Origin: Pseudomonadota bacterium
GTDB lineage: Bacteria > Bdellovibrionota > FAC87 > UBA2466
Assembly (NCBI GenBank): GCA_043718025.1
Contig: JAYSWN010000001.1
Location: 1-64,000 of the forward strand
Reading direction: 5' to 3'
DNA length: 64,000 nt
The notes under the pieces: model-generated
Seen by the model: the letters and a program-made list of their open reading frames with translations, nothing else
Told to the model about the DNA's origin: nothing
Databases searched by the model: none
Translations under genes and position numbers: made by a program
In this document: piece by piece, positions 13,801 to 31,275 of the stretch
Numbering within the stretch: position 1 is the first letter of the stretch
Layout: each line of letters begins with the position of its first letter

Positions 13801-14402
13801 ATCTCATCGCCGAGCCACTCGGCGCGAATCGGCTTATCGTAAAGCGGCGAGAAAATGTCGACCACGCCGCCGCGTACGGCGAAGCTCCCCGGATCGTAGA
13901 CGGTGGGCTGTCTTTGGTAACCGGCCTCAAGTAAGCCTTTGATTAGGTCATCGCGAGAGATCTCGGCGTTGGGCTTGAGGTGCCGAGTCACGCGCGCAAA
14001 ACCAGCGGTGGGCAAACACTTTTGCAACACTGCAGACGAGGTGGTTAAAAAAATTCTTTTATGGCTGTCGTTCAGGGCGTGGAAGAGGGCTTTGTTTCTC
14101 TCGGATACCGATTCGGGATTGGGCAGAATACCGCGGTAATAGTCAAACTCCACCGGCGGAAAGTAATGAACACGCGATGCCGCCTCTCGCCCTAAAAAGA
14201 AAAGCAAGTCGTCGGCTACGGCCCGCGCTACGGCGGCGTCCTTGAACACAGCGAGAATCGGGTGTGCCGTGTTTTGGTATGACTGGGCAAGAACCCAAGC
14301 TTTACCCAAAGGGGACAAACCAACCAGTGCCATCAGGGGCGCAGGAGTGCCCCCTTTTTTCAGCCACTCGGCAAGTTCGTTTCTGGGTACAGTTTCACTC
14401 AT
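10881..14402 (-). CDS. mfd: Transcription-repair coupling factor
   Basis: RGGVVDIF, VVHKEHGIGKY (RID), GDVGYGKTEVA, DEEHRFGV, TATPIPRTL, QLRGRVGR, DLEIRGAG. Confidence 0.98.
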   Translation of the reverse strand: MSETVPRNELAEWLKKGGTPAPLMALVGLSPLGKAWVLAQSYQNTAHPILAVFKDAAVARAVADDLLFFLGREAASRVHYFPPVEFDYYRGILPNPESVSERNKALFHALNDSHKRIFLTTSSAVLQKCLPTAGFARVTRHLKPNAEISRDDLIKGLLEAGYQRQPTVYDPGSFAVRGGVVDIFSPLYDKPIRAEWLGDEIEEIRFFDPKSQRSLEKVDQVSVIPVGSTLLPRPEELSAVNEKLKERLDEIEIPKSQREELFTKLVDGLPLPEWGLLFPLLSGGSSSVFDYFPKDKTIFWDGKSSFDEQVKETDLPRLLKNHELYEKAPRAIAKKDQLFLSLQDLAQTREPKQDRFFEDFSKGEAGEDELVSRAVSFLIERAPGKKGHPHLALESIATAMKSWIDKGYHIHLVCHTTTHASRMRDLFDPYGISLDLVEQDKPAIEGLFATDFRRIAIWNGFLSESLEFPDLKVVLLSEEAVFGSKKRTSRSAAWSGKDRDRLLQSFRDLKPGDFVVHKEHGIGKYVALKTMDFLGVSGDYVQLEYRDGDKLYVPVYRLNILQKYVSGENSTAAVDKLGGDRWVKAKSKARRAVAELAAEFLTLQAKRKMITAYACSPPGSDYTEFEMEFPFDETPDQLKVIEEINQDLSKSSPMDRLVCGDVGYGKTEVAMRAAFRAVLDGKQVAVLVPTTVLAFQHFETFKSRFKSVGARVEMVSRLKSAAENKKTLEEATDGKVDILIGTHRLLSSDVQFKSLALLVIDEEHRFGVVHKERLKKMSETVHVLSMTATPIPRTLNMAMSGIKEISLITTPPPDRLAVRTFVCRSADEVIAEAVTNELIRDGQIYFVHNRVESIFKRADELRALVPKLKIDVAHGQMNGDELEKKMLEFYRGEANMLMSTTIIESGLDIPRANTIIIDDAQNFGLAQLYQLRGRVGRSAVRAYCYLLIPGENLIGDDGKQRLQVIQRYTDLGSGFHIASHDLEIRGAGDLLGKDQSGHIAAVGIDMYFDLLEESIRELQGNPREEEIEPEITMKIAARFPNDYLPDISERVLIYRKLSSVTQEEEISEIETEIRDRFGSIPAEVHNLLGLMTLKLYLKRMHVLRMNCGPRKTSLQFAPSTPVSGQKIVKLIQRDKEERYSLTPDGKLVFTVRDTDWQGQLAQIRRLCEALDID

Positions 14403-16221: not shown

Positions 16222-16250
16222 TTGACAATCTTTACCCCCACTCTTAGGGT
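16222..16250 (+). promoter_or_regulatory. Sigma70-type promoter of the nuo membrane-arm operon
   Basis: Perfect TTGACA (16222-16227), 17-bp spacer, TAGGGT (TAnnnT, 16245-16250). Confidence 0.6.
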
Positions 16251-16373: not shown

Positions 16374-16817
16374 TTGGAAACGGGCTTCATCACAGTATTT
16401 TGGTACTTTGTAATCGCGGCCGCGATTGTGCCTCTCATGCTAGGCGCGGGTTGGCTATTGCGTCCCAAATCCCGGTACATTGGCAAAGCGGGAGCCGCTT
16501 ATGAGTGTGGTGAAGACCCCGTTGGCAGTCCGTGGGTAAAATTCAACATTCGTTTTTACGTCATTGCGATAGTTTTTATTATTTTCGACGTTGAGATGGT
16601 GGCCATCTTCCCGGTCGCGACGCTCTTTAAAGACGCGGCGCTCAAAGGCACAGCCGGTCTTATTTTTGCCGAAATTTTTCTGTTCGTCGGCCTTTTGGTT
16701 GCCGGCCTTATTTTCTGCTGGGTGCGTGGCGACCTAGATTGGGTGAAGGGCGTCTCCGGCCCCCGCCTGCGAAGCCCAAATAAAAATCGAAAGAGCGAAG
16801 TTAAGGGGAACGCATGA
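16374..16817 (+). CDS. nuoA: NADH-quinone oxidoreductase subunit A (set 1)
   Basis: YECG, RFYVIAIVFIIFDVE, GDLDW; TTG start after GGAAGGG. Confidence 0.95.
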   Translation: METGFITVFWYFVIAAAIVPLMLGAGWLLRPKSRYIGKAGAAYECGEDPVGSPWVKFNIRFYVIAIVFIIFDVEMVAIFPVATLFKDAALKGTAGLIFAEIFLFVGLLVAGLIFCWVRGDLDWVKGVSGPRLRSPNKNRKSEVKGNA

Positions 16818-17956
16818 TCGAGTCAGCTGCCTTTGCCCACACGCTGCAGGGCTGGGTTGGAATGGGTCCGCTCTGGATTTATGCCGCCCTTTCCGCCTTT
16901 CTTATTCTGTTTTTGCTCGCCCTTCCTTTTGGTGGCTTGGCCACTTACGTTGAGCGAAAGATCGCCGCCGATATTCAAGATCGCGTTGGCCCTAACCGCG
17001 TTGGCCCATTGGGCATTCTTCAGTTTGCGGCCGATGCCGTTAAAATGCTCGCGAAGGAAGACTTTACCCCGACCGGCGCTGACCGTTTCCTATTTAATAT
17101 TGCTCCGGTTTTTGTGGTGGTGGGCGCCTGCGCCGCCTTTGCTGCCTTGCCGTTTGGAAAACATCTGTTGGGCGCCGATTTAAATATCGGCGTTTTGTAT
17201 GTTCTGGCGGTCACCACTTTAGTGGCGCCAGGTTTGTTGCTGGGATCGTGGGCTTCACAAAACAAGTGGTCTTTGCTCGGCGGCCTTCGTGCGGCAGCCC
17301 AAATCGTTAGCTACGAAATTCCGGTTTCGCTTTCCATTCTTCCCGCGGTCATTATTTCGGGAACCCTGCAGATGGGCTCAATTGTTGAGCAGCAGGGTTG
17401 GAATACCGCGGTGGAACACGCGGCGGTGAATTATCATTTTTGGAACATAGTGCACAATCCGTTTACCTTTTGTGCCTTCTTCCTGCTCTTCGTTGGTGGC
17501 TTGGCGGAGACCAACCGCATTCCATTCGACTTACCTGAAGCCGAATCTGAACTGGTTTCGGGTTTCAACACCGAGTTTTCGGGAATGCGCTTTGGACTTT
17601 ACGCACTGGGCGAGTTTGTTGATGTGTTCGTGATGTCGGCGATGGTTACCGCCTTGTACTTAGGTGGCTGGCAGCTTCCCTTTTTTAATATCGATCAATG
17701 GGTGGTGCCCTTGCCCGTAGGGGTACTGGCGCTCGTTCACTTTACGGTGTTCATGGCCAAGACCCTGGTGATGGTCTTCGTTGTCATGTGGCTGCGCTGG
17801 ACGTTGCCGCGTTTGCGCGTGGATCAGCTGATGAGTCTTTGCTGGAAGGGCATGGTTCCGTTGGCGCTGATTAATGTTACCGGCACTGCTTTGTGGATGT
17901 GGGTCTTTAAAGGGCAGTCGATGGTGCAGTTAATCATGAAAGCTTTTGGCGGATAA
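16814..17956 (+). CDS. nuoH: NADH-quinone oxidoreductase subunit H (set 1)
   Basis: ERK..QDRVGPNRVGP, AQIVSYE, AETNRIPFDLPEAESELVSG, RWTLPRLRVDQL. Confidence 0.97.
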   Translation: MIESAAFAHTLQGWVGMGPLWIYAALSAFLILFLLALPFGGLATYVERKIAADIQDRVGPNRVGPLGILQFAADAVKMLAKEDFTPTGADRFLFNIAPVFVVVGACAAFAALPFGKHLLGADLNIGVLYVLAVTTLVAPGLLLGSWASQNKWSLLGGLRAAAQIVSYEIPVSLSILPAVIISGTLQMGSIVEQQGWNTAVEHAAVNYHFWNIVHNPFTFCAFFLLFVGGLAETNRIPFDLPEAESELVSGFNTEFSGMRFGLYALGEFVDVFVMSAMVTALYLGGWQLPFFNIDQWVVPLPVGVLALVHFTVFMAKTLVMVFVVMWLRWTLPRLRVDQLMSLCWKGMVPLALINVTGTALWMWVFKGQSMVQLIMKAFGG

Positions 17957-17961
17957 CACAG

Positions 17962-18477
17962 ATGACTACCGGAATGAAATTGGTGCTGTTTGCGGCTGAG
18001 ATTTTTACGCTAGCCGCGGCCCTTGTCGCCACCTTCCACCCCAATGTGCTTTACGGCGCCATAGCGCTTTTGGGCACTTTTCTTGGCGTGGCCGCAATGT
18101 ATCTCTTTGCCGGCGCCGATTTTTTGGCCGGTGCACAAGTGATTGTTTACGTCGGTGGCGTCACCATTTTAATTCTCTTCGCGATCATGCTCACGCAATG
18201 GCTATACCAAATGAAACTGCGTGATATTGGCACTAAGTTACTTGTCCCCGTTCTCATTGGGGCGGCCCTTTTCGCTTATTTGGTTAAGGCACTTTTAGAT
18301 ATCAACCCGCAGTTCGCCGCAGAAAATATTGAGAAATCACAAAAATTTTTGCACGCCCCCAAGACTCCGCTCATTGGTGAGGCTTTACTCAATGCCTATC
18401 TGCTCCCTTTTGAAGCCATCACCATTTTGCTTTTGGGTGCTTTGGTTGGTGCGGTTTGGATAGCGAGGCCAAGGTAA
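17962..18477 (+). CDS. nuoJ: NADH-quinone oxidoreductase subunit J (set 1)
   Basis: ADFLAGAQVIVYVGG, YLLPFE..LL..LVGA. Confidence 0.93.
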   Translation: MTTGMKLVLFAAEIFTLAAALVATFHPNVLYGAIALLGTFLGVAAMYLFAGADFLAGAQVIVYVGGVTILILFAIMLTQWLYQMKLRDIGTKLLVPVLIGAALFAYLVKALLDINPQFAAENIEKSQKFLHAPKTPLIGEALLNAYLLPFEAITILLLGALVGAVWIARPR

Positions 18478-18482
18478 CCATC

Positions 18483-18824
18483 ATGAATTTGCAAGTACTC
18501 CACTCTTTTTTAGATAAGGCCTGCGGAGTGCAGGGCTTTTTGGTCGTGAGCGCGGCGCTCTTTTGTTTGGGCATCGTGGGCGTGCTTTCGCGCAAGAACA
18601 CCATCGGAATTCTGCTCGGCATCGAGCTTATTCTCAATGCCGCGGGGCTTAATTTTGTAGCTTTTAGTCGCTATCGCACGGCGAACATCGATGGCCAGGT
18701 GGCCAATCTATTTATCATTATCATTGCCGCGGCGGAAGCTGCGGTGGCGCTGGCGATCATTCTTAGATTTTATCGCTTGAAACAGACTATTGATGCCGAT
18801 GAGGCCAACCTTCTGAGGAATTAG
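18483..18824 (+). CDS. nuoK: NADH-quinone oxidoreductase subunit K (set 1)
   Basis: RKN..IELILNAA, GQV, AAAEAAVALA; start moved to ATG 18483. Confidence 0.95.
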   Translation: MNLQVLHSFLDKACGVQGFLVVSAALFCLGIVGVLSRKNTIGILLGIELILNAAGLNFVAFSRYRTANIDGQVANLFIIIIAAAEAAVALAIILRFYRLKQTIDADEANLLRN

Positions 18825-18827
18825 CGA

Positions 18828-20888
18828 ATGGCGCAGAGTTGTCTTTGGATAGTGGCGTTCCCTTTCTCGGCCTTTTTAATTCAGGCTTGGATTGGTAAAA
18901 AGCTGCCCCGTCACGGGGATTTTATCTCGGTAATCGCTATTGCCGGCTCGTTGGCGTTGGCAACGCCGATCTTTATTCAGATGCTGAGCACGGGAAATTT
19001 GTACGACACCCTTCAGCTTAAATGGATCGCGCTTCCCGGGGTGCCCTCCGCCGGGCTAAAAGGGGCTCAAGGGTATGAACTCGTGATTGGCGTGCTGGTG
19101 AACAACCTAACCGCCATCATGTTGTTCATGGTTACGCTGTGTTCGACCCTGATTCACCTCTTCTCCGTGGGCTACATGCACGGTGAAGATCGGTATCATC
19201 TCTTTTTCGCTTACATCTCTTTGTTCTCGGCTGCGATGTTGGGCTTGGTTATTTCCGATAACTTGCTCACCTTCTTTATCTGTTGGGAGCTGATGGGCCT
19301 ATGCTCGTACCTGTTAATTGGTTTCTATTACAAAAAGCCGTCGGCCATTAACGCCAGCATAAAAGCCTTTATGACCACCCGTGTGGGTGACACCTGTTTT
19401 TTTATGGGCATTTGCGGGGTTTATTACCTGTTCGGAACCACCAATTTCATGGAGATTTACGGGGCGGTAAAAAATAACGTGGGCCACGATGTCCTGATTT
19501 TGGGGCTGCCGGCATACACGTTTATTGGTTTGATGATCATGATGGGCACGATTGGAAAGTCGGCCCAGTTTCCTCTGCACATCTGGTTGCCCGATGCGAT
19601 GGAAGGCCCCACTCCGGTGAGCGCCCTTATTCATGCGGCTACCATGGTGGCGGCCGGCGTTTTTCTTTTGATTCGCACCTATCCGTTGCTCGAAGCCTCG
19701 CACGGGGTGTTGACGATTATCGCCTACGTTGGCGTGATTACGGCCTTTCTGGCGTCGCTTATTGCCATCGTGCAGACCGACATCAAGAAGGTGCTCGCTT
19801 ACTCAACCATCAGTCAGCTTGGTTTCATGGTGCTGGGCGTGGGGGTCGGGGCGTTCGGCGCTGCCTTTATGCATTTGGTGACTCACGCTTGTTTCAAGGC
19901 CTGTTTATTCTTGTGTTCGGGCAGCGTGATTCACGCCGTACACACTCAGGACATGCGCGAAATGGGCGGGTTGCGTACTAAGATGCCTTGGACATTTGCG
20001 TGCATGCTCATTGCCACCTTGGCGATTAGTGGCCTTCCGTTCTTCTCAGGTTTTGTGAGTAAGGATCGAGTCTTGGCCGGGGCGCTGGCTTTTGGCATGG
20101 AACACGCTCATCACATGCTGATCCCTATTCTTGGTTTTGTAACCGCCGGCATCACCGCGTTTTACATGTTTCGCCTGATCTACATGACCTTCTTCGGCGC
20201 AGCGCGCGATGAGCATAAGCATCACCATGCGCACGAACAGCCGTTGATCATGGTTTTTCCCTTGGTGGTTTTGGCCGCTTGTTCTTTGTCTCTCTGGTTT
20301 TCGGGCCCCACTGGTTTGGATTTAGTGGACAGTGTGCTGCCGGTGAAATGGTTTGAACACAGTGTGGAGGCTTCGCAGGTGGCGATGGGCATTGGCGCTC
20401 ACCATGGAAATGAAGAGATTCATCACACCGCCCACAACTTGGCGCTGATTTTATCGTTGTTATTGGCCGGTGGCGGCATTCTGCTTTCTTCGCTGGTTTA
20501 CCTACGGCGGATTATCAGCCCCGATACGTTAAAGCGGCTGTTCGGGCCGATGCACCATATTTTGTGGCATAAATATTTTTTTGATGAGCTGTACGTCGGT
20601 TTCTTCATCAAGAAGGTGCTGTTGTCATGGAATCGCATGCTGGCGGCGTTTGATAACCGTGTGGTGGATGCCATCTTCGTGGATGGCTGGAGCAAAGTGG
20701 TGATGGTGCTGCGCACCGTTGTCGGTAAGTTCGACGAGATTTTTGTTGATCGGCTATTTGTTGATGGCGCCGGAGATATGGTCACCGTGAGTGGCTGGGT
20801 AGTGCGTCGTTTTCAAACTGGCCGGGTACAGCAGTATTTGATTTTTTCGTTGTTGGCGCTCGGAGTTGTGTTCTGGGCGTTGAAATAG
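18828..20888 (+). CDS. nuoL: NADH-quinone oxidoreductase subunit L (set 1), extended amphipathic helix
   Basis: WELMGLCSY, GKSAQFPLHIWLPDAMEGPTPVSALIHAATMV, DIKKVLAYST, THACFKA, GFVSKD, QTG. Confidence 0.97.
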   Translation: MAQSCLWIVAFPFSAFLIQAWIGKKLPRHGDFISVIAIAGSLALATPIFIQMLSTGNLYDTLQLKWIALPGVPSAGLKGAQGYELVIGVLVNNLTAIMLFMVTLCSTLIHLFSVGYMHGEDRYHLFFAYISLFSAAMLGLVISDNLLTFFICWELMGLCSYLLIGFYYKKPSAINASIKAFMTTRVGDTCFFMGICGVYYLFGTTNFMEIYGAVKNNVGHDVLILGLPAYTFIGLMIMMGTIGKSAQFPLHIWLPDAMEGPTPVSALIHAATMVAAGVFLLIRTYPLLEASHGVLTIIAYVGVITAFLASLIAIVQTDIKKVLAYSTISQLGFMVLGVGVGAFGAAFMHLVTHACFKACLFLCSGSVIHAVHTQDMREMGGLRTKMPWTFACMLIATLAISGLPFFSGFVSKDRVLAGALAFGMEHAHHMLIPILGFVTAGITAFYMFRLIYMTFFGAARDEHKHHHAHEQPLIMVFPLVVLAACSLSLWFSGPTGLDLVDSVLPVKWFEHSVEASQVAMGIGAHHGNEEIHHTAHNLALILSLLLAGGGILLSSLVYLRRIISPDTLKRLFGPMHHILWHKYFFDELYVGFFIKKVLLSWNRMLAAFDNRVVDAIFVDGWSKVVMVLRTVVGKFDEIFVDRLFVDGAGDMVTVSGWVVRRFQTGRVQQYLIFSLLALGVVFWALK

Positions 20889-20906
20889 AGAGGCGTTGAA
20901 GGATCT

Positions 20907-22412
20907 ATGCTTAGTCTAATGACGTTTGTCCCGCTGATCGGGATGGTAGTGGTCTTATGTCTCCCCAAAGATAAGCCGCAGTGGATTCGGCTGGCCAGTG
21001 TGGTCACCACGTTTATCCCCTTAGCGCTCGCCGCCAAGCTGTTTATGGAATTCGACCGGACCAATCCGGGCATTCAATTCACCGAACGCATGATGTGGAT
21101 TCCGATGTTCAACATCGAATACTACATGGGGGTCGACGGATTGAGCGTCGGCATGGTGATTTTAACCGCGCTGCTGTCTTTTCTTTGTATTTTTGCTTCG
21201 TGGACCATCGACTATGGCGTCAAAGGCTACTTTGCGATGTTTCTATTTTTAGAAGCGGGAATGATGGGCGTGTTCTGCGCTTTAGATTTTTTCCTGTTCT
21301 TCATGTTCTGGGAAGTGATGCTGCTTCCCATGTACTTTCTCATCGGTATTTGGGGCGGCAAAAACAAAGTTTACGCCGCGATCAAATTCTTTCTCTACAC
21401 CCTATTTGGTTCGGTGCTGATGCTGCTCGTTATGGTGGGCATGTATTACTACTCTGACGCTCACACCTTCGACCTTATTAAATTGGCGGCTACGCATCCT
21501 TTCGCGGGTAAAACTATCTCGTTGTTCGGTAGCCAATTTGCGATGGACAAGATTTTCTGGGTGGGCCTTTTTATTGGTTTTGCCATCAAGGTTCCGGTGT
21601 GGCCGTTTCACACCTGGCTGCCTTGGGCGCACGTGGAAGCACCAACTGCCGTATCGGTGATTTTGGCCGGCGTACTTCTGAAAATGGGTACCTACGGAAT
21701 TCTCCGCATGAACTTTCCCATTCTTCCCGAAGCCACCATGTGGGCAGCAAACGCCATGGCATTGCTCGGCGTAATCAATATTCTTTACGGGGCGTTCTGC
21801 GCGATGGCGCAAACCGATCTCAAAAAGCTGGTGGCTTACTCTTCGGTTTCTCACATGGGTTACGTGATGCTGGGCATGTCCACCTTTACGGTGGCGGGCG
21901 TGAACGGTGCCGTTCTCCAAATGGTGAACCATGGCCTTTCGACCGCCATGATGTTCCTTTTGGTCGGCATCATTTATGAACGCGCGCATCACCGTTGGAT
22001 TGTGAAGCCGGACGGCAGCCGTGGTTTTGGCGGCATTGCCGGCGTAGTGCCGGTGTTTACCGGAGTTTCCGCCATTGCCTTGTTTGCTTCGTTGGGCCTT
22101 CCCGGCCTCAATGGTTTTATCAGTGAAGCCATGGTTTTCATGGGAGCGTTTTCGGTGCCGCGTTTACAAACATTAACGGTGATTGGCTCTCTAGGAATCG
22201 TGCTGGGCGCCGCTTACTTGTTGTGGATGTTTATGCGGGTTTATTTGGGGCCGTTGAACGAAGAGTACAAAGACTTGCCTGACATGAATTGGCGCGAGCG
22301 GCTCACGTTGGCGCCATTGATCGTGTTGGTAATTCTTTTGGGCGTTTATCCCATGCCGGTGCTCGACCTGATGTCGGCAACGGTGGCTAAACTTCTGACG
22401 ATTTTCACCTAA
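20907..22412 (+). CDS. nuoM: NADH-quinone oxidoreductase subunit M (set 1)
   Basis: GVDGLS, FWEVML.PM, IKVP..PFHTWLP.AHVEAP, LLKMGTYG, AYSSVSHMG, GFISE. Confidence 0.97.
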   Translation: MLSLMTFVPLIGMVVVLCLPKDKPQWIRLASVVTTFIPLALAAKLFMEFDRTNPGIQFTERMMWIPMFNIEYYMGVDGLSVGMVILTALLSFLCIFASWTIDYGVKGYFAMFLFLEAGMMGVFCALDFFLFFMFWEVMLLPMYFLIGIWGGKNKVYAAIKFFLYTLFGSVLMLLVMVGMYYYSDAHTFDLIKLAATHPFAGKTISLFGSQFAMDKIFWVGLFIGFAIKVPVWPFHTWLPWAHVEAPTAVSVILAGVLLKMGTYGILRMNFPILPEATMWAANAMALLGVINILYGAFCAMAQTDLKKLVAYSSVSHMGYVMLGMSTFTVAGVNGAVLQMVNHGLSTAMMFLLVGIIYERAHHRWIVKPDGSRGFGGIAGVVPVFTGVSAIALFASLGLPGLNGFISEAMVFMGAFSVPRLQTLTVIGSLGIVLGAAYLLWMFMRVYLGPLNEEYKDLPDMNWRERLTLAPLIVLVILLGVYPMPVLDLMSATVAKLLTIFT

Positions 22413-22421
22413 AGGTTGGCC

Positions 22422-23927
22422 GTGATTCAAAATGCCGTTGAAAGTTTAAAGTGGTTTGCTCCAGAAGCTGTTTTAGTCACGTTTTTGGTGCTCATCTTTA
22501 TAACTGATGCGTTTTTGCCCAAGGCGCGATCGACTTCGCTCTCCTTTATGTTGGGTTGTTTGGGTTTGGTGGCTTCGATTGCCGCAACCCTCAAATTAAT
22601 GCCCTTGGCCCCGTCGATGTACTTCTCGGGAGTGGTGGCGCACGATGGCCTTTCTAGCTTTTTCCGCATCCTCGCGTTTTCCGCCGGAATTTTAGGTCTC
22701 TACGCCGCCTACGGCTCGAAAGAGCTCGAAGTAAAATATCGTAACGAGTACGCCATTCTAATTTTGTGTACGGTGTTTGGAATGAGTTTGATGGCGATTT
22801 CCACCAACCTCATCATGCTCTACATCGGTATTGAAACGGTGAGCATTATTTCGTTTGCGTTGGCCGGCCTAAATCGCGAAAGCCTGCGATCGAATGAGGC
22901 GTCGTTAAAGTATTTGATCTACGGCGCGTTATCGTCTGGCCTGATGATCTACGGCTTTTCGTTGTTATACGGCATCACCGGCTCGTTGCAATACGACGAG
23001 ATTCGCTCAAGCCTAATGGCAATGAATATGGCGGAGCCGCCGGCGGTTCTTCAGATTGCGATCTTACTGGTGTTTGGCGGTTTGGCTTTCAAGATTTCGG
23101 CATTTCCCATGCATTTCTGGACTCCAGACGTATACGAAGGGGCGCCCACTCCCGTGGTCACCTTCTTTTCGGTTGGCCCTAAAGCTGCCGGCATGGCGGC
23201 ATTGATTCGTATTTTTTATGGGGTGTTCGCCATCAAGGGCGCCGACATGACGTGGACCGTGATGCCCGGCAGTAACCTGCTTTTGGGCCTCTCAATCGTT
23301 TCTGCCCTTACCATGTTCGTAGGAAATGTTTCGGCACTGGCGCAGGTTAGCGTGAAGCGAATGCTGGCCTATTCAAGTATCGCGCACGTGGGGTACCTAT
23401 TGATGGGCCTGGTGGCGATGAATGAAAAAGGGCTCGTTGCCGTGCTTTTTTATCTCGTAGTTTATTATCTGATGAACGTGGGCGCCTTCATCGTGACTGG
23501 TCTGGTCATTGAAGCGCGCGGTTCAGACGACGTAGAATCCTTTCGTGGTATCGGTTGGACCAATCCCTACCTTGGGGTTTGTATGGCGGTGTTTCTGTTT
23601 TCTTTAACCGGCATTCCGGTGTTCGGTGGTTTCGTCGGCAAATTTTTACTTTTCGGCTCGGTGATTGATGCCCCCAATTTCTTGTGGTTGGCAATTTGGG
23701 GCGTGCTCAACAGCGTGGTGTCTTTGTACTATTACGCCCGCATCGTGAAGGCGATGTGGCTGGATAAGCCGGTGACGGCATCGGCTCAGACGCTGCCCCG
23801 CATCCATTTAAGTTCATTTCATTTTGTGGGCCTCTTTTTGTTGGCCGTGCCCACAGTTCTGCTTGGGCTGTTCTTCAGCCCGGTGGTGCGGATGGCGAAG
23901 GCTTCAGTGGCGGCGTTACTCTCATAA
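22422..23927 (+). CDS. nuoN: NADH-quinone oxidoreductase subunit N (set 1)
   Basis: EASLKY, FKIS.FPMHFWTPDVYEGAP, KRMLAYSSIAH, GFVGK, YYY.R. GTG 22422 preferred (AAGGT RBS) over TTG 22416. Confidence 0.96.
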   Translation: MIQNAVESLKWFAPEAVLVTFLVLIFITDAFLPKARSTSLSFMLGCLGLVASIAATLKLMPLAPSMYFSGVVAHDGLSSFFRILAFSAGILGLYAAYGSKELEVKYRNEYAILILCTVFGMSLMAISTNLIMLYIGIETVSIISFALAGLNRESLRSNEASLKYLIYGALSSGLMIYGFSLLYGITGSLQYDEIRSSLMAMNMAEPPAVLQIAILLVFGGLAFKISAFPMHFWTPDVYEGAPTPVVTFFSVGPKAAGMAALIRIFYGVFAIKGADMTWTVMPGSNLLLGLSIVSALTMFVGNVSALAQVSVKRMLAYSSIAHVGYLLMGLVAMNEKGLVAVLFYLVVYYLMNVGAFIVTGLVIEARGSDDVESFRGIGWTNPYLGVCMAVFLFSLTGIPVFGGFVGKFLLFGSVIDAPNFLWLAIWGVLNSVVSLYYYARIVKAMWLDKPVTASAQTLPRIHLSSFHFVGLFLLAVPTVLLGLFFSPVVRMAKASVAALLS

Positions 23928-23945
23928 TTATGATTAGGGAGTCTC

Positions 23946-24311
23946 TTGGTAACCTATCTTCCGATAGCAATTTTATTTCTCTTCGGCGCGGGCATGGGAG
24001 TGGTCATTATTGCGCTGTCGAGTTTTCTCGGGCCGCGTAACTACAACTCGACCAATCTCAGTACCTACGAATGCGGAGTGACCCCTGAAGGCAGCGCCCG
24101 CATTCCTTTTAAGAGCCGTTTTTACCTTATCGCCGTTTTATTTTTGTTGTTTGACGTAGAAGCGGTCTTCTTTTTTCCGTGGGCGTTGGTTTATCGTGAA
24201 TCGGTTCGTCAAGACGCCGGGCTGCTTATTGCGATGTTGGTTTACATGGCGTTTTTAATCTTGGGGTTGGTCTATGTGTTTCGTAAGAACGTGTTGGAGA
24301 CTGACCAGTGA
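23946..24311 (+). CDS. nuoA: NADH-quinone oxidoreductase subunit A (set 2)
   Basis: YECG, RFYLIAVLFLLFDVE..FFFPWA; TTG start after GGGAG. Confidence 0.95.
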   Translation: MVTYLPIAILFLFGAGMGVVIIALSSFLGPRNYNSTNLSTYECGVTPEGSARIPFKSRFYLIAVLFLLFDVEAVFFFPWALVYRESVRQDAGLLIAMLVYMAFLILGLVYVFRKNVLETDQ

Positions 24312-25378
24312 CGGCAATCATGGAGCTGTCGCTCAATTCATTTAAGATTTTTCTTCTCTTTTTCTCCATCGTTAACGTGGTGCCCGTGATGCTTTGGGTT
24401 GAACGGCGAATGGCGGGTCTGATGCAAGATCGCCCCGGCCCAAACCGCGTCGGACCTTTTGGCCTGTTTCAAGCCGTGGCCGACGTCGTAAAGTTTTTCT
24501 GGAAGATGGACCCGATTCCGCAGAATGCAAATCGCGTCTTATACGTGCTTGCCCCGTTGCTCGCGCTTATTCCGGCCACCCTGGTGATTGCTACGCTGCC
24601 GTTTGCCGACTTCGTTGTTTTGTGGGATCGCGAATTCCATCTCCAGATAACTGACCTTAACGTTGGCATACTTTACATGATGGCGATTGGGTCGTTAGGC
24701 GCCTACGGCATATTGTTTGGCGGATGGGCTTCGAATAATAAGTTTTCGCTATTGGGTGCACTGCGGGCGGCCTCGCAATTAATTAGCTACGAAATTCCGT
24801 TGGGACTGGCCGCCACCGGCGCCGTTCTATTTTATGGCACGTACTCCTTGCGCAGTATGGTGTTAATTCAAGACGGCACCATTTTTGGGGTGCTGCCGAA
24901 GTGGGGCATCTTTTTTCAGCCGCTCGGATTTATGATTTTTTTTATCGCCTCGTTAGCGGAAACTAACCGCATTCCATTCGACCTGCCTGAATCCGAAGGG
25001 GAGTTGGTGGCGGGTTTTCACACTGAGTACGGAAGCATGAAGTTCGCCATGTTCATGATGGCGGAATATATGAATCTGGCCACCATGTCGGCTCTCATGA
25101 CCACGATGTATTTCGGCGGTTGGCACTTGCCTTGGATTACTGACGCGAGCCTGCTCAGCTGGTTGGGCGGTAGTCGAAATTTAATGGCCGTGGTGCAGCT
25201 CGGGGTTTTCTTCGCTAAGGTTTATTCCTTTCTGCTTGTGTACGTTTGGATTCGCTGGACGTTGCCACGCTTTAGATTTGACCAACTGATGCGCATGGCC
25301 TGGCGAAATCTCACGCCGTTTGCCCTGTTGAACTTGGTAGTTACCGCCGTGCTTCTTTATTTCTGGGAGCAGCGATGA
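24308..25378 (+). CDS. nuoH: NADH-quinone oxidoreductase subunit H (set 2)
   Basis: ERR..QDRPGPNRVGP, SQLISYE, AETNRIPFDLPESEGELVAG, RWTLPRFRFDQL. Confidence 0.97.
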   Translation: MTAIMELSLNSFKIFLLFFSIVNVVPVMLWVERRMAGLMQDRPGPNRVGPFGLFQAVADVVKFFWKMDPIPQNANRVLYVLAPLLALIPATLVIATLPFADFVVLWDREFHLQITDLNVGILYMMAIGSLGAYGILFGGWASNNKFSLLGALRAASQLISYEIPLGLAATGAVLFYGTYSLRSMVLIQDGTIFGVLPKWGIFFQPLGFMIFFIASLAETNRIPFDLPESEGELVAGFHTEYGSMKFAMFMMAEYMNLATMSALMTTMYFGGWHLPWITDASLLSWLGGSRNLMAVVQLGVFFAKVYSFLLVYVWIRWTLPRFRFDQLMRMAWRNLTPFALLNLVVTAVLLYFWEQR

Positions 25379-25905
25379 AAGAAATTCTATTCACCGCGTT
25401 TGGATTGTTGTCGCTGGCGAGCGCTCTGATGGTTGTTTTGGCATCGAGTCCCATCTTCAGCGCCTTAGGCCTACTGTTTAGTCTCTTTGGTCTGTCGGCC
25501 CTGTATCTGATCTGGGGATCGGCATTTTTATCGGTGATTCAAATTTTGATTTACGCCGGCGCGATCGTGGTGCTGTTTGTTTTCGTCGTGATGTTGCTCG
25601 ACCTCTCCAACACCATTGATACGGGCAAAGGGGCGGGATGGTTTGCCACGTTACTGGCCACTTCTACCGGCTGGCTATTTTCTCTGTTTTTGCTACGGGC
25701 ATTGAATCGCGGAGTGTTTGCCTCGGCTCCCGACGGTAAGATGATGGGAAGCCTACGGGTGGTCTCTCAAGTGCTGTTCAGAGAGTATCTGTGGCCGTTT
25801 GAAATTCTTTCGGTGTTTCTTTTGGCCGTGATTATCGCCGCCTACTGTTTGGCCCGGCCAGAGACGCTCGATGACGACAATGGCGCCGGTGGAGGGACGC
25901 GATGA
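25375..25905 (+). CDS. nuoJ: NADH-quinone oxidoreductase subunit J (set 2)
   Basis: QILIYAGAIVVLFVFVVMLL, YLWPFE. Confidence 0.94.
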   Translation: MKEILFTAFGLLSLASALMVVLASSPIFSALGLLFSLFGLSALYLIWGSAFLSVIQILIYAGAIVVLFVFVVMLLDLSNTIDTGKGAGWFATLLATSTGWLFSLFLLRALNRGVFASAPDGKMMGSLRVVSQVLFREYLWPFEILSVFLLAVIIAAYCLARPETLDDDNGAGGGTR

Positions 25906-26222
25906 TTGCTACTTACTCAGCCTCTATGTTGTCGTGGAGCCACTACGTGGCCATTGCACTCTTTGGCATTGGATTAACTGGGTTTTTGTTGCGTCGTAAC
26001 GCGATCGTAGTTTTGATGTGCGTTGAACTAATGCTGAACGCCGTGAATCTCATTTTTTTGGAAGTGTCGATGCGCACGCAATCGCACGAGGGCCTTCTCT
26101 TCGTGGTGTTTGTGGTGACGGTCGCGGCGGCAGAAGCGGCCATTGGCCTTGCCATTCTGTTGAACCTGTACCGCAAACAGGGAACTTTAGAGCTCAACCT
26201 TTTCCGGATGTTGCAGGGGTAA
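25902..26222 (+). CDS. nuoK: NADH-quinone oxidoreductase subunit K (set 2)
   Basis: RRN..MCVELMLNAVNL, VAAAEAAIGLA. Confidence 0.95.
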   Translation: MIATYSASMLSWSHYVAIALFGIGLTGFLLRRNAIVVLMCVELMLNAVNLIFLEVSMRTQSHEGLLFVVFVVTVAAAEAAIGLAILLNLYRKQGTLELNLFRMLQG

Positions 26223-26226
26223 TGCG

Positions 26227-28128
26227 ATGAAAACGGCATTTTACATCTTGTTACTCGCCCCCTGGATCGGTTGCGTGATCAACGGCTTCTTATGGAAAGT
26301 CTTGAAGCAGACGGCTTCAGTACGTCGCTCGGGGGTGATTGCCACGTTTGCGGCGGGCACTTCTTTTGTCGCGGCGCTGGTTTTGTTTTTGTCCTTAGCC
26401 CAAGGGCAAGAGGCAGTTGAGTTTGCTTGGCCGTGGATAAACATTGGTGACCTCGCTCTTGACTTAGGGTTTAAGTTCGACCGCCTCACGGCCGTGATGG
26501 CGCTGTTTGTGACCGGTATTGGCACGCTCATACACCTTTATTCGATTGGCTACATGGACCACGACAAATCGCCGTCGCGGTACTTTGCGTATCTCAATTT
26601 GTTTCTAGCTAACATGCTGGTGCTCATTACCGCTACTTCGCTTCCCGTGCTTTTTATCGGTTGGGAAGGGGTGGGCTTATGCTCTTACCTGCTGATCGGT
26701 TTTTGGTTCGAAGATCCAGAAAAGGCCAAGGCCGGAATGAAGGCCTTCATCGTTAATCGCATTGGCGACGCCGGCTTCTTACTGGGTACTTTTCTACTGC
26801 TTTCAGTTTTCCACACGGTGAATTTTGCGCAGATGGCAAAGGTCATGTCCCAGCCCGACATCCTTACTCTAGTCGACATTCCTACTTTGACGGTGGCAGC
26901 AATTCTTTTGTTTATTGGGGCCATGGGTAAGTCGGCCCAACTGCCGTTATTCGTGTGGTTGCCGGATGCCATGGCTGGCCCCACGCCGGTAAGCGCGCTC
27001 ATTCATGCCGCCACCATGGTGACGGCAGGCATTTACCTTGTTTTACGTATGAATTTTTTGTTCCAGGTCACGCCACAGGCTAGCGCTTTTATTGCGGTAG
27101 TGGGCATGGCCACGGCTCTCTTCTCGGCTTTGGTGGCGACTTCGCAAAACGACATCAAAAAGGTATTGGCCTACTCGACGGTGAGTCAGCTCGGTCTGAT
27201 CTTTGTGGCGCTCGGTGCGGGGGCCTACGATGCGGGCCTATTTCACGTTATCACCCACGCCTTTTTTAAAGCCCTTCTTTTCTTGGGCGCGGGCAGTGTG
27301 ATTCACGCTCTGTCGGGCGAACAAGACATTACTCGCATGGGTGGTCTACGCAAAAAGTTGCCCACTACGTTTTGGACTTTTACCGTGGGCTGGGCCGCCA
27401 TTTGTGGGTTGCCTCCCTTCTCGGGTTTTTTCAGTAAAGACCTGATTCTGTTTAGTCTGGTTTCGGAGGGGCCTCGAGGCTGGTTTCTCTGGGGCTGCGC
27501 TTCGCTAACTTCATTGCTCACCGCTTTTTATATGACCCGCCTTTATCTTTTAGTGTTCTTCAGTGAAGAGCGGGATCATCACCATGCCCACGAAAGTCCC
27601 CTCGTGATGAAAATACCGCTGATCGTTTTGGCCGTCGGCGCGATGGTGGCTGGGTTCATTGAGCTGCCCCATCTTTTTCATATCACCTCCCGGCTGTCGC
27701 TTTTTCTTGAGGGGGTCGTACCTGTTCCCCATTTTGTTGAGGGCCCTTTGTCGGAGGGCGGCGCGATGGCCGTTGCCACCGTCGGCGCCGTCTTAGCGAT
27801 AGGATTGGCCTGGCTGATGTACGGCAAACGCCCCTTTTCACCAAGCCGAAGCCCCGTCGTTATGGTGCTGAGAGAAAAGTTTTGGGTCGATGAGTTTTAC
27901 CATCTGGTTTTTGTTACCCCTTTTGACATGGTTTCTGGGTTTCTTGCGCGCGTCGTGGACCCCCGTTTGGTAGATGGTTTTTTCGTGGGCTCGGCAAAAC
28001 TGGCTCGCTTTGGAGGAACTGTTTTGGGTTTTCTTCAGTGGGGAGCCGTGCAGTTTTACTTGTGGGTGATGGCAGCGGGTGCCGTTGTTCTGTTTTGGGT
28101 ATTTCTTAGAGGTTCGATCTTCCAATGA
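26227..28128 (+). CDS. nuoL: NADH-quinone oxidoreductase subunit L (set 2), standard-length helix
   Basis: GWEGVGLCSY, NRIGD, GKSAQLPL..WLPDAMAGPTPVSALIHAATMV, THAFFKA, GFFSKD. Confidence 0.97.
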   Translation: MKTAFYILLLAPWIGCVINGFLWKVLKQTASVRRSGVIATFAAGTSFVAALVLFLSLAQGQEAVEFAWPWINIGDLALDLGFKFDRLTAVMALFVTGIGTLIHLYSIGYMDHDKSPSRYFAYLNLFLANMLVLITATSLPVLFIGWEGVGLCSYLLIGFWFEDPEKAKAGMKAFIVNRIGDAGFLLGTFLLLSVFHTVNFAQMAKVMSQPDILTLVDIPTLTVAAILLFIGAMGKSAQLPLFVWLPDAMAGPTPVSALIHAATMVTAGIYLVLRMNFLFQVTPQASAFIAVVGMATALFSALVATSQNDIKKVLAYSTVSQLGLIFVALGAGAYDAGLFHVITHAFFKALLFLGAGSVIHALSGEQDITRMGGLRKKLPTTFWTFTVGWAAICGLPPFSGFFSKDLILFSLVSEGPRGWFLWGCASLTSLLTAFYMTRLYLLVFFSEERDHHHAHESPLVMKIPLIVLAVGAMVAGFIELPHLFHITSRLSLFLEGVVPVPHFVEGPLSEGGAMAVATVGAVLAIGLAWLMYGKRPFSPSRSPVVMVLREKFWVDEFYHLVFVTPFDMVSGFLARVVDPRLVDGFFVGSAKLARFGGTVLGFLQWGAVQFYLWVMAAGAVVLFWVFLRGSIFQ

Positions 28129-29690
28129 TTTCTAACCTTCTAGTTTGGCACATCCTGTTACCGGTAGTTGGGGTGGCGGTGATGTTTCCGCTAACCGAGA
28201 GGCTAGCTCGCCCCTTGGCGTTCGCGTTTTCATTGGGCGGAGTCGTGCTTTCAATTCTGCTCTGGGCGCAGTTTTCGGCGGTTGATTCGTTTCAGATGCA
28301 GCACCTGTTTTCATTGCCCTGGCTCTCTTCGTTTCCGGCGAAGTTTTCACTCGGCGTAGACGGCATCAGCTTGCCGCTAGTGGTGCTTACGAAATTCATG
28401 ATGCCAATTGCTTTGCTGGCCAGTTGGAAAGAAGATCGGCATCCGCGTGCCTTAATGAGCGCCTACCTTTTATTAGATTCGGCGATGACCGGAGCGTTCT
28501 TGGCCACCGACGTCTTTTTGTTCTATGTGTTCTGGGAAGCCATGCTGGTCCCTATGCTGTTGCTCATTGGGGTGTGGGGAAGCAAAGATCGTATTTATGC
28601 GGCGCTTAAATTTTTTCTATTTACCTTTGCCGGCAGCATTTTTCTGCTCGCCGCGTTTCTTTATTTGATGGTGGCCCACCGCCAGCAGGTCGGTTTTTTT
28701 ACCACCGATCTGGTTGCGTTGACTAAGGTTACGCTTTCTACGGCGCCCGTTTGGCTGGGCCTTTCCGTTCAAGATCTGATCTTTTGGGGCTTGACCCTAG
28801 CCTTCCTTATAAAAATCCCACTTTTTCCTTTTCACACGTGGCTTCCGGATGCGCACGTTCAGGCACCTACCGGTGGCAGCATTCTTCTAGCGGCCGTACT
28901 TTTAAAACTTGGTGCCTATGGCCTTTTACGTTTCTCTATTCCGATCGCGACGATGAGCTTTTACAAGTTCGCCCCGCTTCTGAGCGTGCTCTCGCTAGTT
29001 GGTATCGTGTACGGGGCGTGGGTTGCCTTTCAGCAAAACGACATGAAAAAGTTAGTGGCCTATTCATCGGTGAGCCACCTTGCGTTCGTTGTCTTGGGAA
29101 TTGCTTCGCTAAATTTAGAGGGCCTTACCGGTGGTATGCTGCAGATGGTGAACCACGGGGTAAGCACCGGTGCGCTCTTTTTCTTGGTGGGTGCGTTGTA
29201 TGAACGGCGCCACACTCGCGATTTTGCGGAGTACGGTGGACTTGCGGCCGTCGTGCCGTGGTTTTCGTTCTTTCTCGTTTTTACGGTGTGTTCGAGCATG
29301 GGGGTTCCGGGGCTGAATGGTTTCGTGGGCGAGTTTTTGGTCCTGCTCGGCACCTATCAGCAGAATCCGTTTTTTGCGGGTGTCGCGGTGACGGGAATTG
29401 TTTTTGGTGCCATCTACTTGCTAGTTTTCGTGCGCAAGATTTTATTTGGGCCGGTGGACAACGCCGAGAATAAAGTACTTTTAGATTTGCGGCCGCGTGA
29501 GTGGGCGGGGATTTTGCCCTTGGCGGTTTTTATGCTGTTGTTGGGTTTAGCGCCTAACCTAATGTTGAATAAGATTCGGCCATCGCTGGAAAAGTACTGG
29601 GGCTCGCTAGGCCGGCCCCCTAACGCGCAATCCATTCCTACAATGTCGCTAACCCAATGGGCGCCCGAAGCAAGAGGGCCCAAGCGATGA
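28125..29690 (+). CDS. nuoM: NADH-quinone oxidoreductase subunit M (set 2)
   Basis: GVDGIS, FWEAML.PM, IKIP.FPFHTWLPDAHVQAPT, LLKLGAYG, GFVGE. Confidence 0.97.
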   Translation: MISNLLVWHILLPVVGVAVMFPLTERLARPLAFAFSLGGVVLSILLWAQFSAVDSFQMQHLFSLPWLSSFPAKFSLGVDGISLPLVVLTKFMMPIALLASWKEDRHPRALMSAYLLLDSAMTGAFLATDVFLFYVFWEAMLVPMLLLIGVWGSKDRIYAALKFFLFTFAGSIFLLAAFLYLMVAHRQQVGFFTTDLVALTKVTLSTAPVWLGLSVQDLIFWGLTLAFLIKIPLFPFHTWLPDAHVQAPTGGSILLAAVLLKLGAYGLLRFSIPIATMSFYKFAPLLSVLSLVGIVYGAWVAFQQNDMKKLVAYSSVSHLAFVVLGIASLNLEGLTGGMLQMVNHGVSTGALFFLVGALYERRHTRDFAEYGGLAAVVPWFSFFLVFTVCSSMGVPGLNGFVGEFLVLLGTYQQNPFFAGVAVTGIVFGAIYLLVFVRKILFGPVDNAENKVLLDLRPREWAGILPLAVFMLLLGLAPNLMLNKIRPSLEKYWGSLGRPPNAQSIPTMSLTQWAPEARGPKR

Positions 29691-31168
29691 GTGTCGTTAG
29701 TCAGTTTCTATTTCCATTGGGGCCGATTTTGGCTTTGGTAGGCGGCGGTTGCACTCTCATCGGCGCTGAATGCGTAGGCCCCAATTTTTTAAGCACCCGT
29801 GCCAAGGGAATGGTGGCCTGGTTAGCGGTAGCTATAGCCGCAGGGTTGTGCTTTTTTCAGCTTGGTCACATACCGACCGAAGAAGGTTTTCACTTGGCGG
29901 GCGGTCCCGCCTGGCTTGTTCAGTTCACTTATTTTTATCAATTCAGCCGCACGGTAGTTCTCCTTCAGATGATGATCGCAGTTTTTGCCATGTTTGTACT
30001 GCACGCGGTGGTGGCTGAGTTTCGCCGCAATGATATCGTGGGAGAGGTACTAGCGCTCCTATTGTGGTCGGGCGCCGGAATGATGCTACTCGTATCGGCC
30101 GATCACTTTCTGGTCGTGTTTTTAGCCCTGGAACTTCTTTCGTTGCCGCTCTACGCCATGGTGGGATTGAAGCGTTGGGACGCCAAGAGTCTGGAAGCCG
30201 CGCTCAAATACTTCCTGTTTGGTTCCGTGGCCACGGCCTTTTTATTACTGGGAATAGCTTTTATTTTTGCGGAAACGGGAACACTTTCTTTACCCCTCAT
30301 TCGTGACTTTGTGGCGGCCCTGGCTCAAGGCGGCAATCTGGCCGATCATGTTTTGCTGTTGTCGGGCATGTTGTTGCTGATCGTGGCCCTGGGTTTTAAG
30401 GCGGGCATGTTTCCGTTCCACATGTGGCTCCCCGACGTTTATGAGGGGGCACCTGCCGGCGTAACGGCTTGGATGGGAAGCGGAGTGAAGCTCGCCGCCA
30501 TTGGCCTTACCTATCGCCTTTTCGCCGAAACGTTTGCCACTCTACCGCAGGGGTGGGTGGAGCCATTTCGCTATCTGGTGGCCGCCACAATTCTGGTGGG
30601 AAATGCGGCCGCTCTGGTGCAAGACGATTTGAAACGAACTTTTGCTTACTCTTCGATTGGTCACGCGGGCTTCTTAATGTTGGGCGTGATGGTGAGTCCG
30701 AGCGATTTAGGAGCATCCCCAAATTTTCTGCTCTATTACTTGCTAACTTACGGCCTGATGTTTATTGGCATTTTTAGTTTTTTAACGCACCTAGAGCGGC
30801 AGGGTCTTAGCACCGAGTTCCACGAATTGTCGGGACTTGGTTTCACGTCGCCGGGTTTAGGGCTGTGCCTCTCAATTTTTGCCCTTTCAGCGGCGGGGCT
30901 TCCTCCCTTTGCCGGCTTCTTTGCCAAATATCAGATCTTTCTTTTCGCCTTTCAAAAGGGCGAAGGGGCATTGGCGGTAATCGCCTTGATCGGTAGCTTG
31001 ATTGGGCTTGCCTACTACCTTCGGGTTTTGGTGTTCCTCTATATGAAAGAGCCAAAGAGCACGGTACGTCTCTCGGCTAAAAGCGATCCCACCGGATTCG
31101 GAATTCTCGTAGCGTTGGCCTTGGCTACGGTCGCGTTGAGCTTTTTACCCGGAATATTCGGCAAATAA
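29687..31168 (+). CDS. nuoN: NADH-quinone oxidoreductase subunit N (set 2)
   Basis: LELLSL, EAALKYF, FK...FPFHMWLPDVYEGAP, AYSSIGH, GFFAK, YYLR. Start at the ATGA overlap with nuoM. Confidence 0.96.
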   Translation: MSVVSQFLFPLGPILALVGGGCTLIGAECVGPNFLSTRAKGMVAWLAVAIAAGLCFFQLGHIPTEEGFHLAGGPAWLVQFTYFYQFSRTVVLLQMMIAVFAMFVLHAVVAEFRRNDIVGEVLALLLWSGAGMMLLVSADHFLVVFLALELLSLPLYAMVGLKRWDAKSLEAALKYFLFGSVATAFLLLGIAFIFAETGTLSLPLIRDFVAALAQGGNLADHVLLLSGMLLLIVALGFKAGMFPFHMWLPDVYEGAPAGVTAWMGSGVKLAAIGLTYRLFAETFATLPQGWVEPFRYLVAATILVGNAAALVQDDLKRTFAYSSIGHAGFLMLGVMVSPSDLGASPNFLLYYLLTYGLMFIGIFSFLTHLERQGLSTEFHELSGLGFTSPGLGLCLSIFALSAAGLPPFAGFFAKYQIFLFAFQKGEGALAVIALIGSLIGLAYYLRVLVFLYMKEPKSTVRLSAKSDPTGFGILVALALATVALSFLPGIFGK

Positions 31169-31275
31169 ACGCGCTCAACAATGCGAAGCGTCGAAACTTT
31201 TGTGACCATTTAACCGCCCGATGAGTGGACCTCTTTTCTATCACGGCTAGAGTGAAAGAAATTTAAGGGGGACTC

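Follow-up and report, generated by a model that had tools for sequence, protein, structure and literature searches.

The stretch of DNA analysed here (hereafter the window) comprises positions 1 to 64,000 of contig JAYSWN010000001.1 in assembly GCA_043718025.1 (hereafter G000), from a bacterium of the Bdellovibrionota, and contains 14 open reading frames (ORFs) for subunits of the membrane arm of complex I. These nuo ORFs all lie on the plus strand between positions 16374 and 31168, in the order A-H-J-K-L-M-N twice. The first set (arm 1) comprises nuoA1 (16374..16817, with the FDVE motif at residue 71), nuoH1 (16814..17956), nuoJ1 (17962..18477), nuoK1 (18456..18824), nuoL1 (18828..20888), nuoM1 (20907..22412), which is the sole nuoM of arm 1, and nuoN1 (22416..23927). 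The second set (arm 2) comprises nuoA2 (23946..24311), nuoH2 (24308..25378), nuoJ2 (25375..25905), nuoK2 (25902..26222), nuoL2 (26227..28128), nuoM2 (28125..29690) and nuoN2 (29657..31168). The best NCBIfam match of each of the 14 ORFs is its own Nuo family. For nuoK1 and nuoN2 the longest ORF is given, and a later ATG may be the true start.

A tandem of two intact membrane-arm gene sets

Adjacent nuo ORFs are separated by gaps of 3–18 nucleotides (nt) or overlap by 4–34 nt, and the end of nuoN1 (23927) and the start of nuoA2 (23946) lie 18 nt apart. An initial annotation, made from the letters of this DNA, had described this gene order with the same coordinates, short gaps and 18-bp junction, and our analysis confirms them for all 14 ORFs. 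Paralogues of the two arms share 29–44% identity (44% for NuoH and 32% for NuoA), in agreement with the divergence that the annotation had noted by inspection. The pumping residues that it had reported are present in both sets, as judged by a pattern scan and, for the transmembrane helix 7 lysine of NuoM2, by direct reading of the sequence; the patterns for the pump residues, the NuoB cysteine pair and the NuoD quinone site were those known for the family. The GC content, overall and at third codon positions (GC3), is similar in both sets. The description of two intact membrane arms therefore stands, although it had missed the different enzyme types of the arms and a lengthened helix HL in NuoL1. 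NuoL1 has 686 residues and contains two 27-residue modules within this helix (residues 608–661; 20649..20810, plus strand), whereas NuoL2 has 633 residues and a helix HL of standard length.

We fetched loci from 23 of the 28 genomes of the same order. In 17 of the 23, one of which (G028) is frameshift-rich, nuoN1 is followed by arm 2 with gaps of 0–73 nt. Among the other six, one contig ends too early, two genomes have arm 1 and a separate E/F/G operon, and in the last three a full 14-gene operon stands alone. Within this order, the tandem is the usual arrangement. It also occurs in family f10 (G117, on a single contig, G068 and G139; gaps of 20–22 nt), in family f4 (G030 and G039, with arm 2 arranged A-C-E-F-H) and in family f6, with a few genes between the sets. 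In arm 2 of G030, G039, G033 and locus L095, nuoE and nuoF are kept between A and H.

Two features of the data would suit a chimera made during assembly, or a tandem pair of recent origin in which one copy is decaying: G000 is fragmented (234 contigs, 92% complete, 4.69% contamination), and arm 2 evolves faster than arm 1. However, one contig of a second run (X2) covers positions 19769–32000, including the junction whose authenticity the annotation had wished to see checked, with five letters differing (the run belongs to the same study and is not independent). The same junction recurs in the 17 order relatives and on the single contig of G117, both sets are alike in GC and GC3 with every key residue retained, and a joint clade of the two arms is rejected (see below). 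The tandem is real and intact, and the chimera or recent-duplication explanation, to which we give next to no credence, is refuted.

The annotation had also claimed one clear promoter in front of the row. A stock promoter scan called none upstream of nuoA1, and its site counts in general were not above chance (6 promoter-like sites versus 12.0 expected, and 44 terminator-like sites versus 33.8 expected). A relaxed scan revealed a predicted sigma70-like motif, TTGACA-17 nt-TAGGGT (16222..16250, plus strand), which falls below the stock threshold but is conserved in relatives, preceding nuoA1 in 18 of 20 members of the same order and in 20 of 36 genomes over the phylum. The motif precedes nuoA2 in 1 of 21. 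Because it recurs before nuoA1 and hardly before nuoA2, the two arms likely share one promoter and one transcript.

Soluble modules and their probable pairing with the arms

As the initial annotation had stated, the window lacks nuoB, C, D, E, F, G and I; in G000, nuoB, nuoD and nuoF match only outside it, on contigs C40 and C230. The genome search that it had suggested recovered nuoB-C-D-E-F-G-I on C40 and nuoB-C-D-I, followed by a rhodanese-domain ORF, on C230. The counts are thus two for the arms, two for the quinone modules and one for the NADH module, with nuoF in single copy; a third nuoB-family match, on contig C2, sits by eye in a NiFe-hydrogenase cluster. Arm 2 and the C40 module together contain all of nuoA–N, with the FMN/NADH domains of NuoF, the Fe–S domains of NuoE and NuoG, the charged residues of NuoL, M, N, K, A and H, the NuoB cysteine pair and the NuoD quinone-site histidine and tyrosine. 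Arm 1 and the C230 module together supply AHJKLMN and BCDI, and neither includes E, F or G. The C230 NuoD ends in GEVDR and lacks the C-terminal NiFe cysteine pair. An identity as an Mrp antiporter or group 4 hydrogenase was considered and rejected, as Nuo families score highest and the NuoD end has no such pair.

Trees, which the annotation had recommended for placing the two sets, separated them. In a NuoH/L/M/N tree, arm 1 forms one clade nested in unsplit ABCDHIJKLMN operons of the Planctomycetota, Acidobacteriota, Elusimicrobiota and others, and arm 2 clusters with the arm-2-only genomes and with operons of 14 genes. An approximately unbiased (AU) test on 19 rows, with outgroups chosen by likeness to NuoL1, rejected a joint clade of both arms (p-AU 8e-51), indicating that the arms are not a recent duplicate. 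The NuoD tree follows the same division, with the C230 type among those 11-gene operons and the C40 type among the 14-gene operons. At 11-gene loci outside the phylum, the C230 copy is the best match for NuoD in 31 of 31 cases and for NuoB in 28 of 28.

Gene presence shows the same pattern. We examined 40 near-complete genomes, picked among the matches listed (150 of 466) of a 301-genome survey, with cut-offs for the arm-1 NuoH and C230-type NuoD set after seeing the score gap. The two proteins occur together in all 19 f10 genomes and in none of the 21 others. nuoF is missing from all 15 arm-1-only genomes and present in all 4 genomes with two arms and in all 21 of the others; it is also absent from the closed arm-1-only genome G036. 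By contrast, nqrB, which encodes a subunit of the Na+-translocating NADH:quinone oxidoreductase (Na+-NQR), is present in 11 of 11 arm-1-only genomes versus 0 of 29 others. Among 40 relatives, counted by eye with three genomes carrying other, hydrogenase-like clusters excluded, C230-type nuoD accompanies arm 1 in 23 of 29 genomes versus 0 of 8 with an arm-2-type set only. G006, G016 and G166 retain arm 1 and have, at a separate place, a full operon that includes E, F and G. Two replacements for NADH oxidation are thus seen, Na+-NQR and a full operon, and arm 1 persisted with both, an argument that it serves a different function.

Taken together, these genomic patterns make it probable that the membrane arms encoded in this row belong to two complex I enzymes whose difference is ancient and are likely expressed from one promoter, with arm 2 likely served by the C40 module and arm 1 by the C230 module. 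The initial annotation had suggested possibly interchangeable arms, on which either soluble module could dock, and had named two dedicated peripheral arms, each following one set, as the observation that would speak against this. The likely single promoter, and a second, degenerate armless B-CD-I module in some arm-1-only genomes, speak for such exchange. However, paralogue identity is only 44% for NuoH and 32% for NuoA, nuoF is lost when arm 2 is lost, and each of the two soluble modules tracks one arm, both in the trees and in gene presence. The observation named in advance has thus largely been made, and we consider interchangeability unlikely.

Several points weigh against dedicated pairing of the two arms with the two modules. 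No C230-type nuoD was recovered from 6 of the 29 arm-1 genomes; all six are fragmented or incomplete, and two of them yielded no nuoD of any type. The arm-1-only genomes, picked by contig number and nuoH count, all belong to one family and perhaps reflect one loss event. The pairing is drawn entirely from genomes; moreover, likeness to the NuoL1 helix guided the choice of outgroups and the trees were rooted at the midpoint, leaving the order of events unproven. 2-Oxoacid:ferredoxin oxidoreductase, a potential donor to arm 1, is present in just 2 of 14 f10 genomes and missing from G007. Finally, the degenerate B-CD-I module kept by some arm-1-only genomes could dock on arm 1. It has a divergent nuoB, a fused nuoCD and a short nuoI and no E, F or G (G036:C1; L053:8904-11411, minus strand), and may be left over from the lost enzyme or serve arm 1 as a second module. 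Second NuoD-like matches also occur in G095, G101, G131, G120, G080 and G190.

Other genes of G000 were noted in passing. The ORF abutting nuoI of the C230 module encodes a 207-residue protein with a C-terminal rhodanese domain (L009:10911-11534) and stays close to the BCDI module in most same-family relatives. The NiFe-hydrogenase cluster with its maturation genes (G000:C2:30062-39894) appears by eye to be of the NAD(P)-linked soluble type. The sole further antiporter-like gene is DabB beside DabA on contig C162 (L011:6428-10552), an inorganic carbon transporter pair in a presumed heterotroph.

Electron input and the long NuoL1 helix

Arm 2 and BCDEFGI would form an ordinary 14-subunit NADH:quinone oxidoreductase, pumping protons via NuoL2, NuoM2, NuoN2 and the H/A/J/K channel. 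Arm 1 and BCDI would form a quinone-reducing, proton-pumping enzyme of 11 subunits whose NuoI would be fed by a putative soluble low-potential carrier of the ferredoxin or flavodoxin type, a mode of feeding proposed for 11-subunit enzymes in the accessible parts of PMC3144371 and PMC11238625. The NQR swap supports a non-NADH input to arm 1, and no donor gene tracks arm 1 strictly. The NuoI loop between the two Fe–S motifs spans 39–43 residues in 15 of 15 BCDI-type proteins versus 27–29 in 10 of 10 of the other type; we guess from this length difference that the longer loop may be a donor docking site. A gene for an EtfD-like Fe–S/CCG protein is present in all 20 genomes examined that have arm 1 and in 3 of the 14 that do not; it lies directly 3′ of BCDI in family f6 (L058:7524-9431 in G032 and L063:7023-9017 in G040) and at L172:3766-5898 in G000, and is a lead only as a possible donor link to arm 1.

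Other candidates were discarded. 2-Oxoacid:ferredoxin oxidoreductase is present in 18 of the 40 genomes and does not track arm 1. Quinone type does not account for the two arms: futalosine genes were found in 0 of 35 genomes, and menB, which reaches the cut-off in three of five genomes (a single one of each type: arm-1-only, tandem and arm-2-only) and not in G000 or G007, does not separate the arm types. No redox gene common to the 11-gene or 2M operons of other phyla was seen in the 18 of 26 listed downstream ORFs that were scanned. Separately, two of the five genomes tested for ETF-QO have it, and neither of these two encodes the EtfD-like protein; at L102:13405-15926 nqrA and nqrB directly follow an 11-gene long-helix operon of another lineage, echoing the NQR link of f10.

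The helix HL of NuoL1 is longer than that of NuoL2 by a net 28 residues (27–28 residues in arm-1 NuoL) and is built from a 27-residue repeat. Its span is 79–82 residues in 25 of 25 arm-1 NuoL proteins versus 52 in 24 of 30 other NuoL proteins, the remaining six being unscored. An AlphaFold model of NuoL1 contains one helix at residues 583–662, but its predicted local distance difference test (pLDDT) value is below 50 at 639–666, and the model geometry was therefore not used. Of the two marks of 2M complex I, the NuoL HL insertion of ~26 residues is present (here +28) and a second nuoM is not, one nuoM being found in each arm-1 set seen.

The long helix raises the possibility that arm 1 is a cryptic four-pump ('2M') arm, in which the helix would span NuoL1, two copies of NuoM1 and NuoN1; this would add to the assignment of arm 1 to an 11-subunit enzyme. 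The lengthening is found in all 25 arm-1 NuoL proteins measured, and the gain, ~42 Å if helical, corresponds to about one subunit. NuoM1 is unusually conserved (relative rate 0.59–0.60 versus 0.77–0.92 in short-helix sets), but NuoM is not slower in other long-helix groups with one nuoM (0.73–0.76). We identified 55 long-helix loci from other phyla, of which 42 show L through N. Relatives with the same helix and two nuoM genes exist among them (12 of 42, 11 being membrane-only AHJKLMMN loci of the Chloroflexota), but one nuoM is usual (30 of 42): a long helix with one nuoM is common outside the phylum and is described for the Manganitrophaceae in the accessible text of PMC9040806. Moreover, the closed arm-1-only genome G036 has only three antiporter-like genes in total. 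A predicted complex of two NuoM1 copies scored 0.00, which is evidence neither way. On balance, a four-pump arm 1 seems doubtful.

The tandem could instead let arm 1 borrow NuoM2 as its fourth pump, as both nuoM genes of G000 lie in this row, likely on one transcript. However, the long helix persists in arm-1-only genomes, including G036 with its three antiporter genes, so NuoM2 is not needed, and such borrowing is highly improbable. If arm 1 does hold four pumps, bacteria of a predatory lineage would possess a five-proton, non-NADH complex I, the same would apply to a large family of operons from many phyla that combine a long helix with one nuoM, and arm-1-only genomes that are closed, in which the sole complex I is of the arm-1 type, would provide a clean test system.

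Site history and comparison with known systems

The row lies head to head with an mfd-like gene (10881..14402, minus strand; name read by eye from the sequence), which is conserved as a marker of this site throughout the phylum. Operons of the tandem type, of arm 1 alone (shown for 6 genomes) and of arm 2 alone (shown for 9) all lie head to head with mfd, although gpsA or a small number of other genes sometimes intervene; the adjacency was not seen in the stretches from the arm-2-only genomes G200, G037 and G031. Because all three operon types share this neighbour, an old tandem with later reciprocal loss of arms is likely. In early Bdellovibrionota an 11-gene and a 14-gene operon may have come to adjoin each other next to mfd, the soluble-subunit genes would then have moved out of both, and lineages would afterwards have lost either arm. 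Family f8, in which AHJKLMN beside mfd is of the arm-2 type by loci and tree, is likely the Bdellovibrionaceae, and f10 is likely the Bacteriovoracaceae, judging by their fit with the accessible text of PMC4758237 and PMC13147790. The nuoAHJKLMN clusters of different predators are likely hidden paralogues. No close NuoL1 was found on plasmids at E 1e-120.

Some variants of the site were also observed. Loci L025, L026, L045 and L095 have nuoC, E and F between A and H of arm 2, with D and G elsewhere, a different or intermediate split. Arm 2 of G117, G068 and G139 (L152–L154) has a very long branch (1.19) and a NuoL without the usual motif at the end of HL, and may be drifting. Downstream of arm 1 in L028 (G006:C53) lie additional genes resembling K, M and N (27–31% identity), possibly an Mrp-type cluster. 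After the operon of the window, positions 31276–32499 encode a 407-residue predicted secreted protein with an HEFGH motif and no Pfam or NCBIfam match.

These findings correct the picture of how bacterial predators conserve energy: what looks like one and the same nuoAHJKLMN cluster likely encodes an arm linked to NADH in one family and, in another, an arm of an 11-subunit enzyme that is not, and an annotation treating the two types as orthologues would be wrong. In the arm-1-only family, Na+-NQR likely took over NADH oxidation. The tandem genomes are a natural system for asking how each of two co-expressed arms is matched to its proper soluble module, and the arm-1-only genomes for asking how an 11-subunit enzyme is fed and what the long NuoL helix clamps with one nuoM.

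The initial annotation knew of no described locus with this layout. We found no description of AHJKLMN twice in a row in a literature search outside which most subscription journals lay, and Fig. S2 of PMC4758237 may show related clusters; membrane-only nuoAHJKLMN is published (PMC4758237 and PMC13147790, as far as their accessible text goes) and the tandem is usual in the order, so the locus is less novel than the annotation had supposed. The split Bdellovibrio operon (Degli Esposti 2015, PMC4758237) is likewise broken into sub-clusters, but the portion of that paper available describes one arm, with no tandem arm, long-helix NuoL or second BCDI. Tan et al. (2026, PMC13147790) place nuoAHJKLMN at one chromosomal site in all Bdellovibrionota studied and report a second, complete 14-gene operon in Peredibacter (37.5–41.5% identity), a pattern resembling that of G166, G006 and G016. 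The available text treats the cluster as one homologous set, without mention of a tandem, an 11-subunit enzyme or an NQR swap, whereas our trees split it into two unrelated types at the site.

Arm 1 and the C230 module share AHJKLMN plus BCDI, the lack of E, F and G and the lack of a fixed donor gene with complex I-like enzymes of 11 subunits (Moparthi and Hagerhall 2011, PMC3144371; Desulfitobacterium, PMC11238625; both in part), but are encoded at two loci, in a row shared with a second arm, and have the long NuoL helix. With 2M complex I, whose mark is an HL insertion of about one module (as cited in the accessible part of PMC9040806), arm 1 shares the insertion and the separate BCDI, as nuoBCDI lies apart from the 2M membrane operon in Chloroflexi (PMC7117926, in part); it lacks the second nuoM. 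In our tree, the AHJKLMMN loci of the Chloroflexota fall in the same long-helix family as arm 1. Complex_I_1 and Complex_I_2 of Ca. Manganitrophaceae also carry the NuoL helix insertion and are described as 'already able to accommodate' extra pumps or as 'in transition toward or away from' them, but belong to another phylum, and the same portion of PMC9040806 describes no membrane-only tandem. The available text of PMC4453560 (2015), on a system to which PMC4859585 also refers, reports two enzymes of different clades per genome, both 14-subunit and mostly in their own operons, unlike here, and reads them as having different roles, as we do. The parts of the locus are all of known kinds, which makes the surprise moderate.

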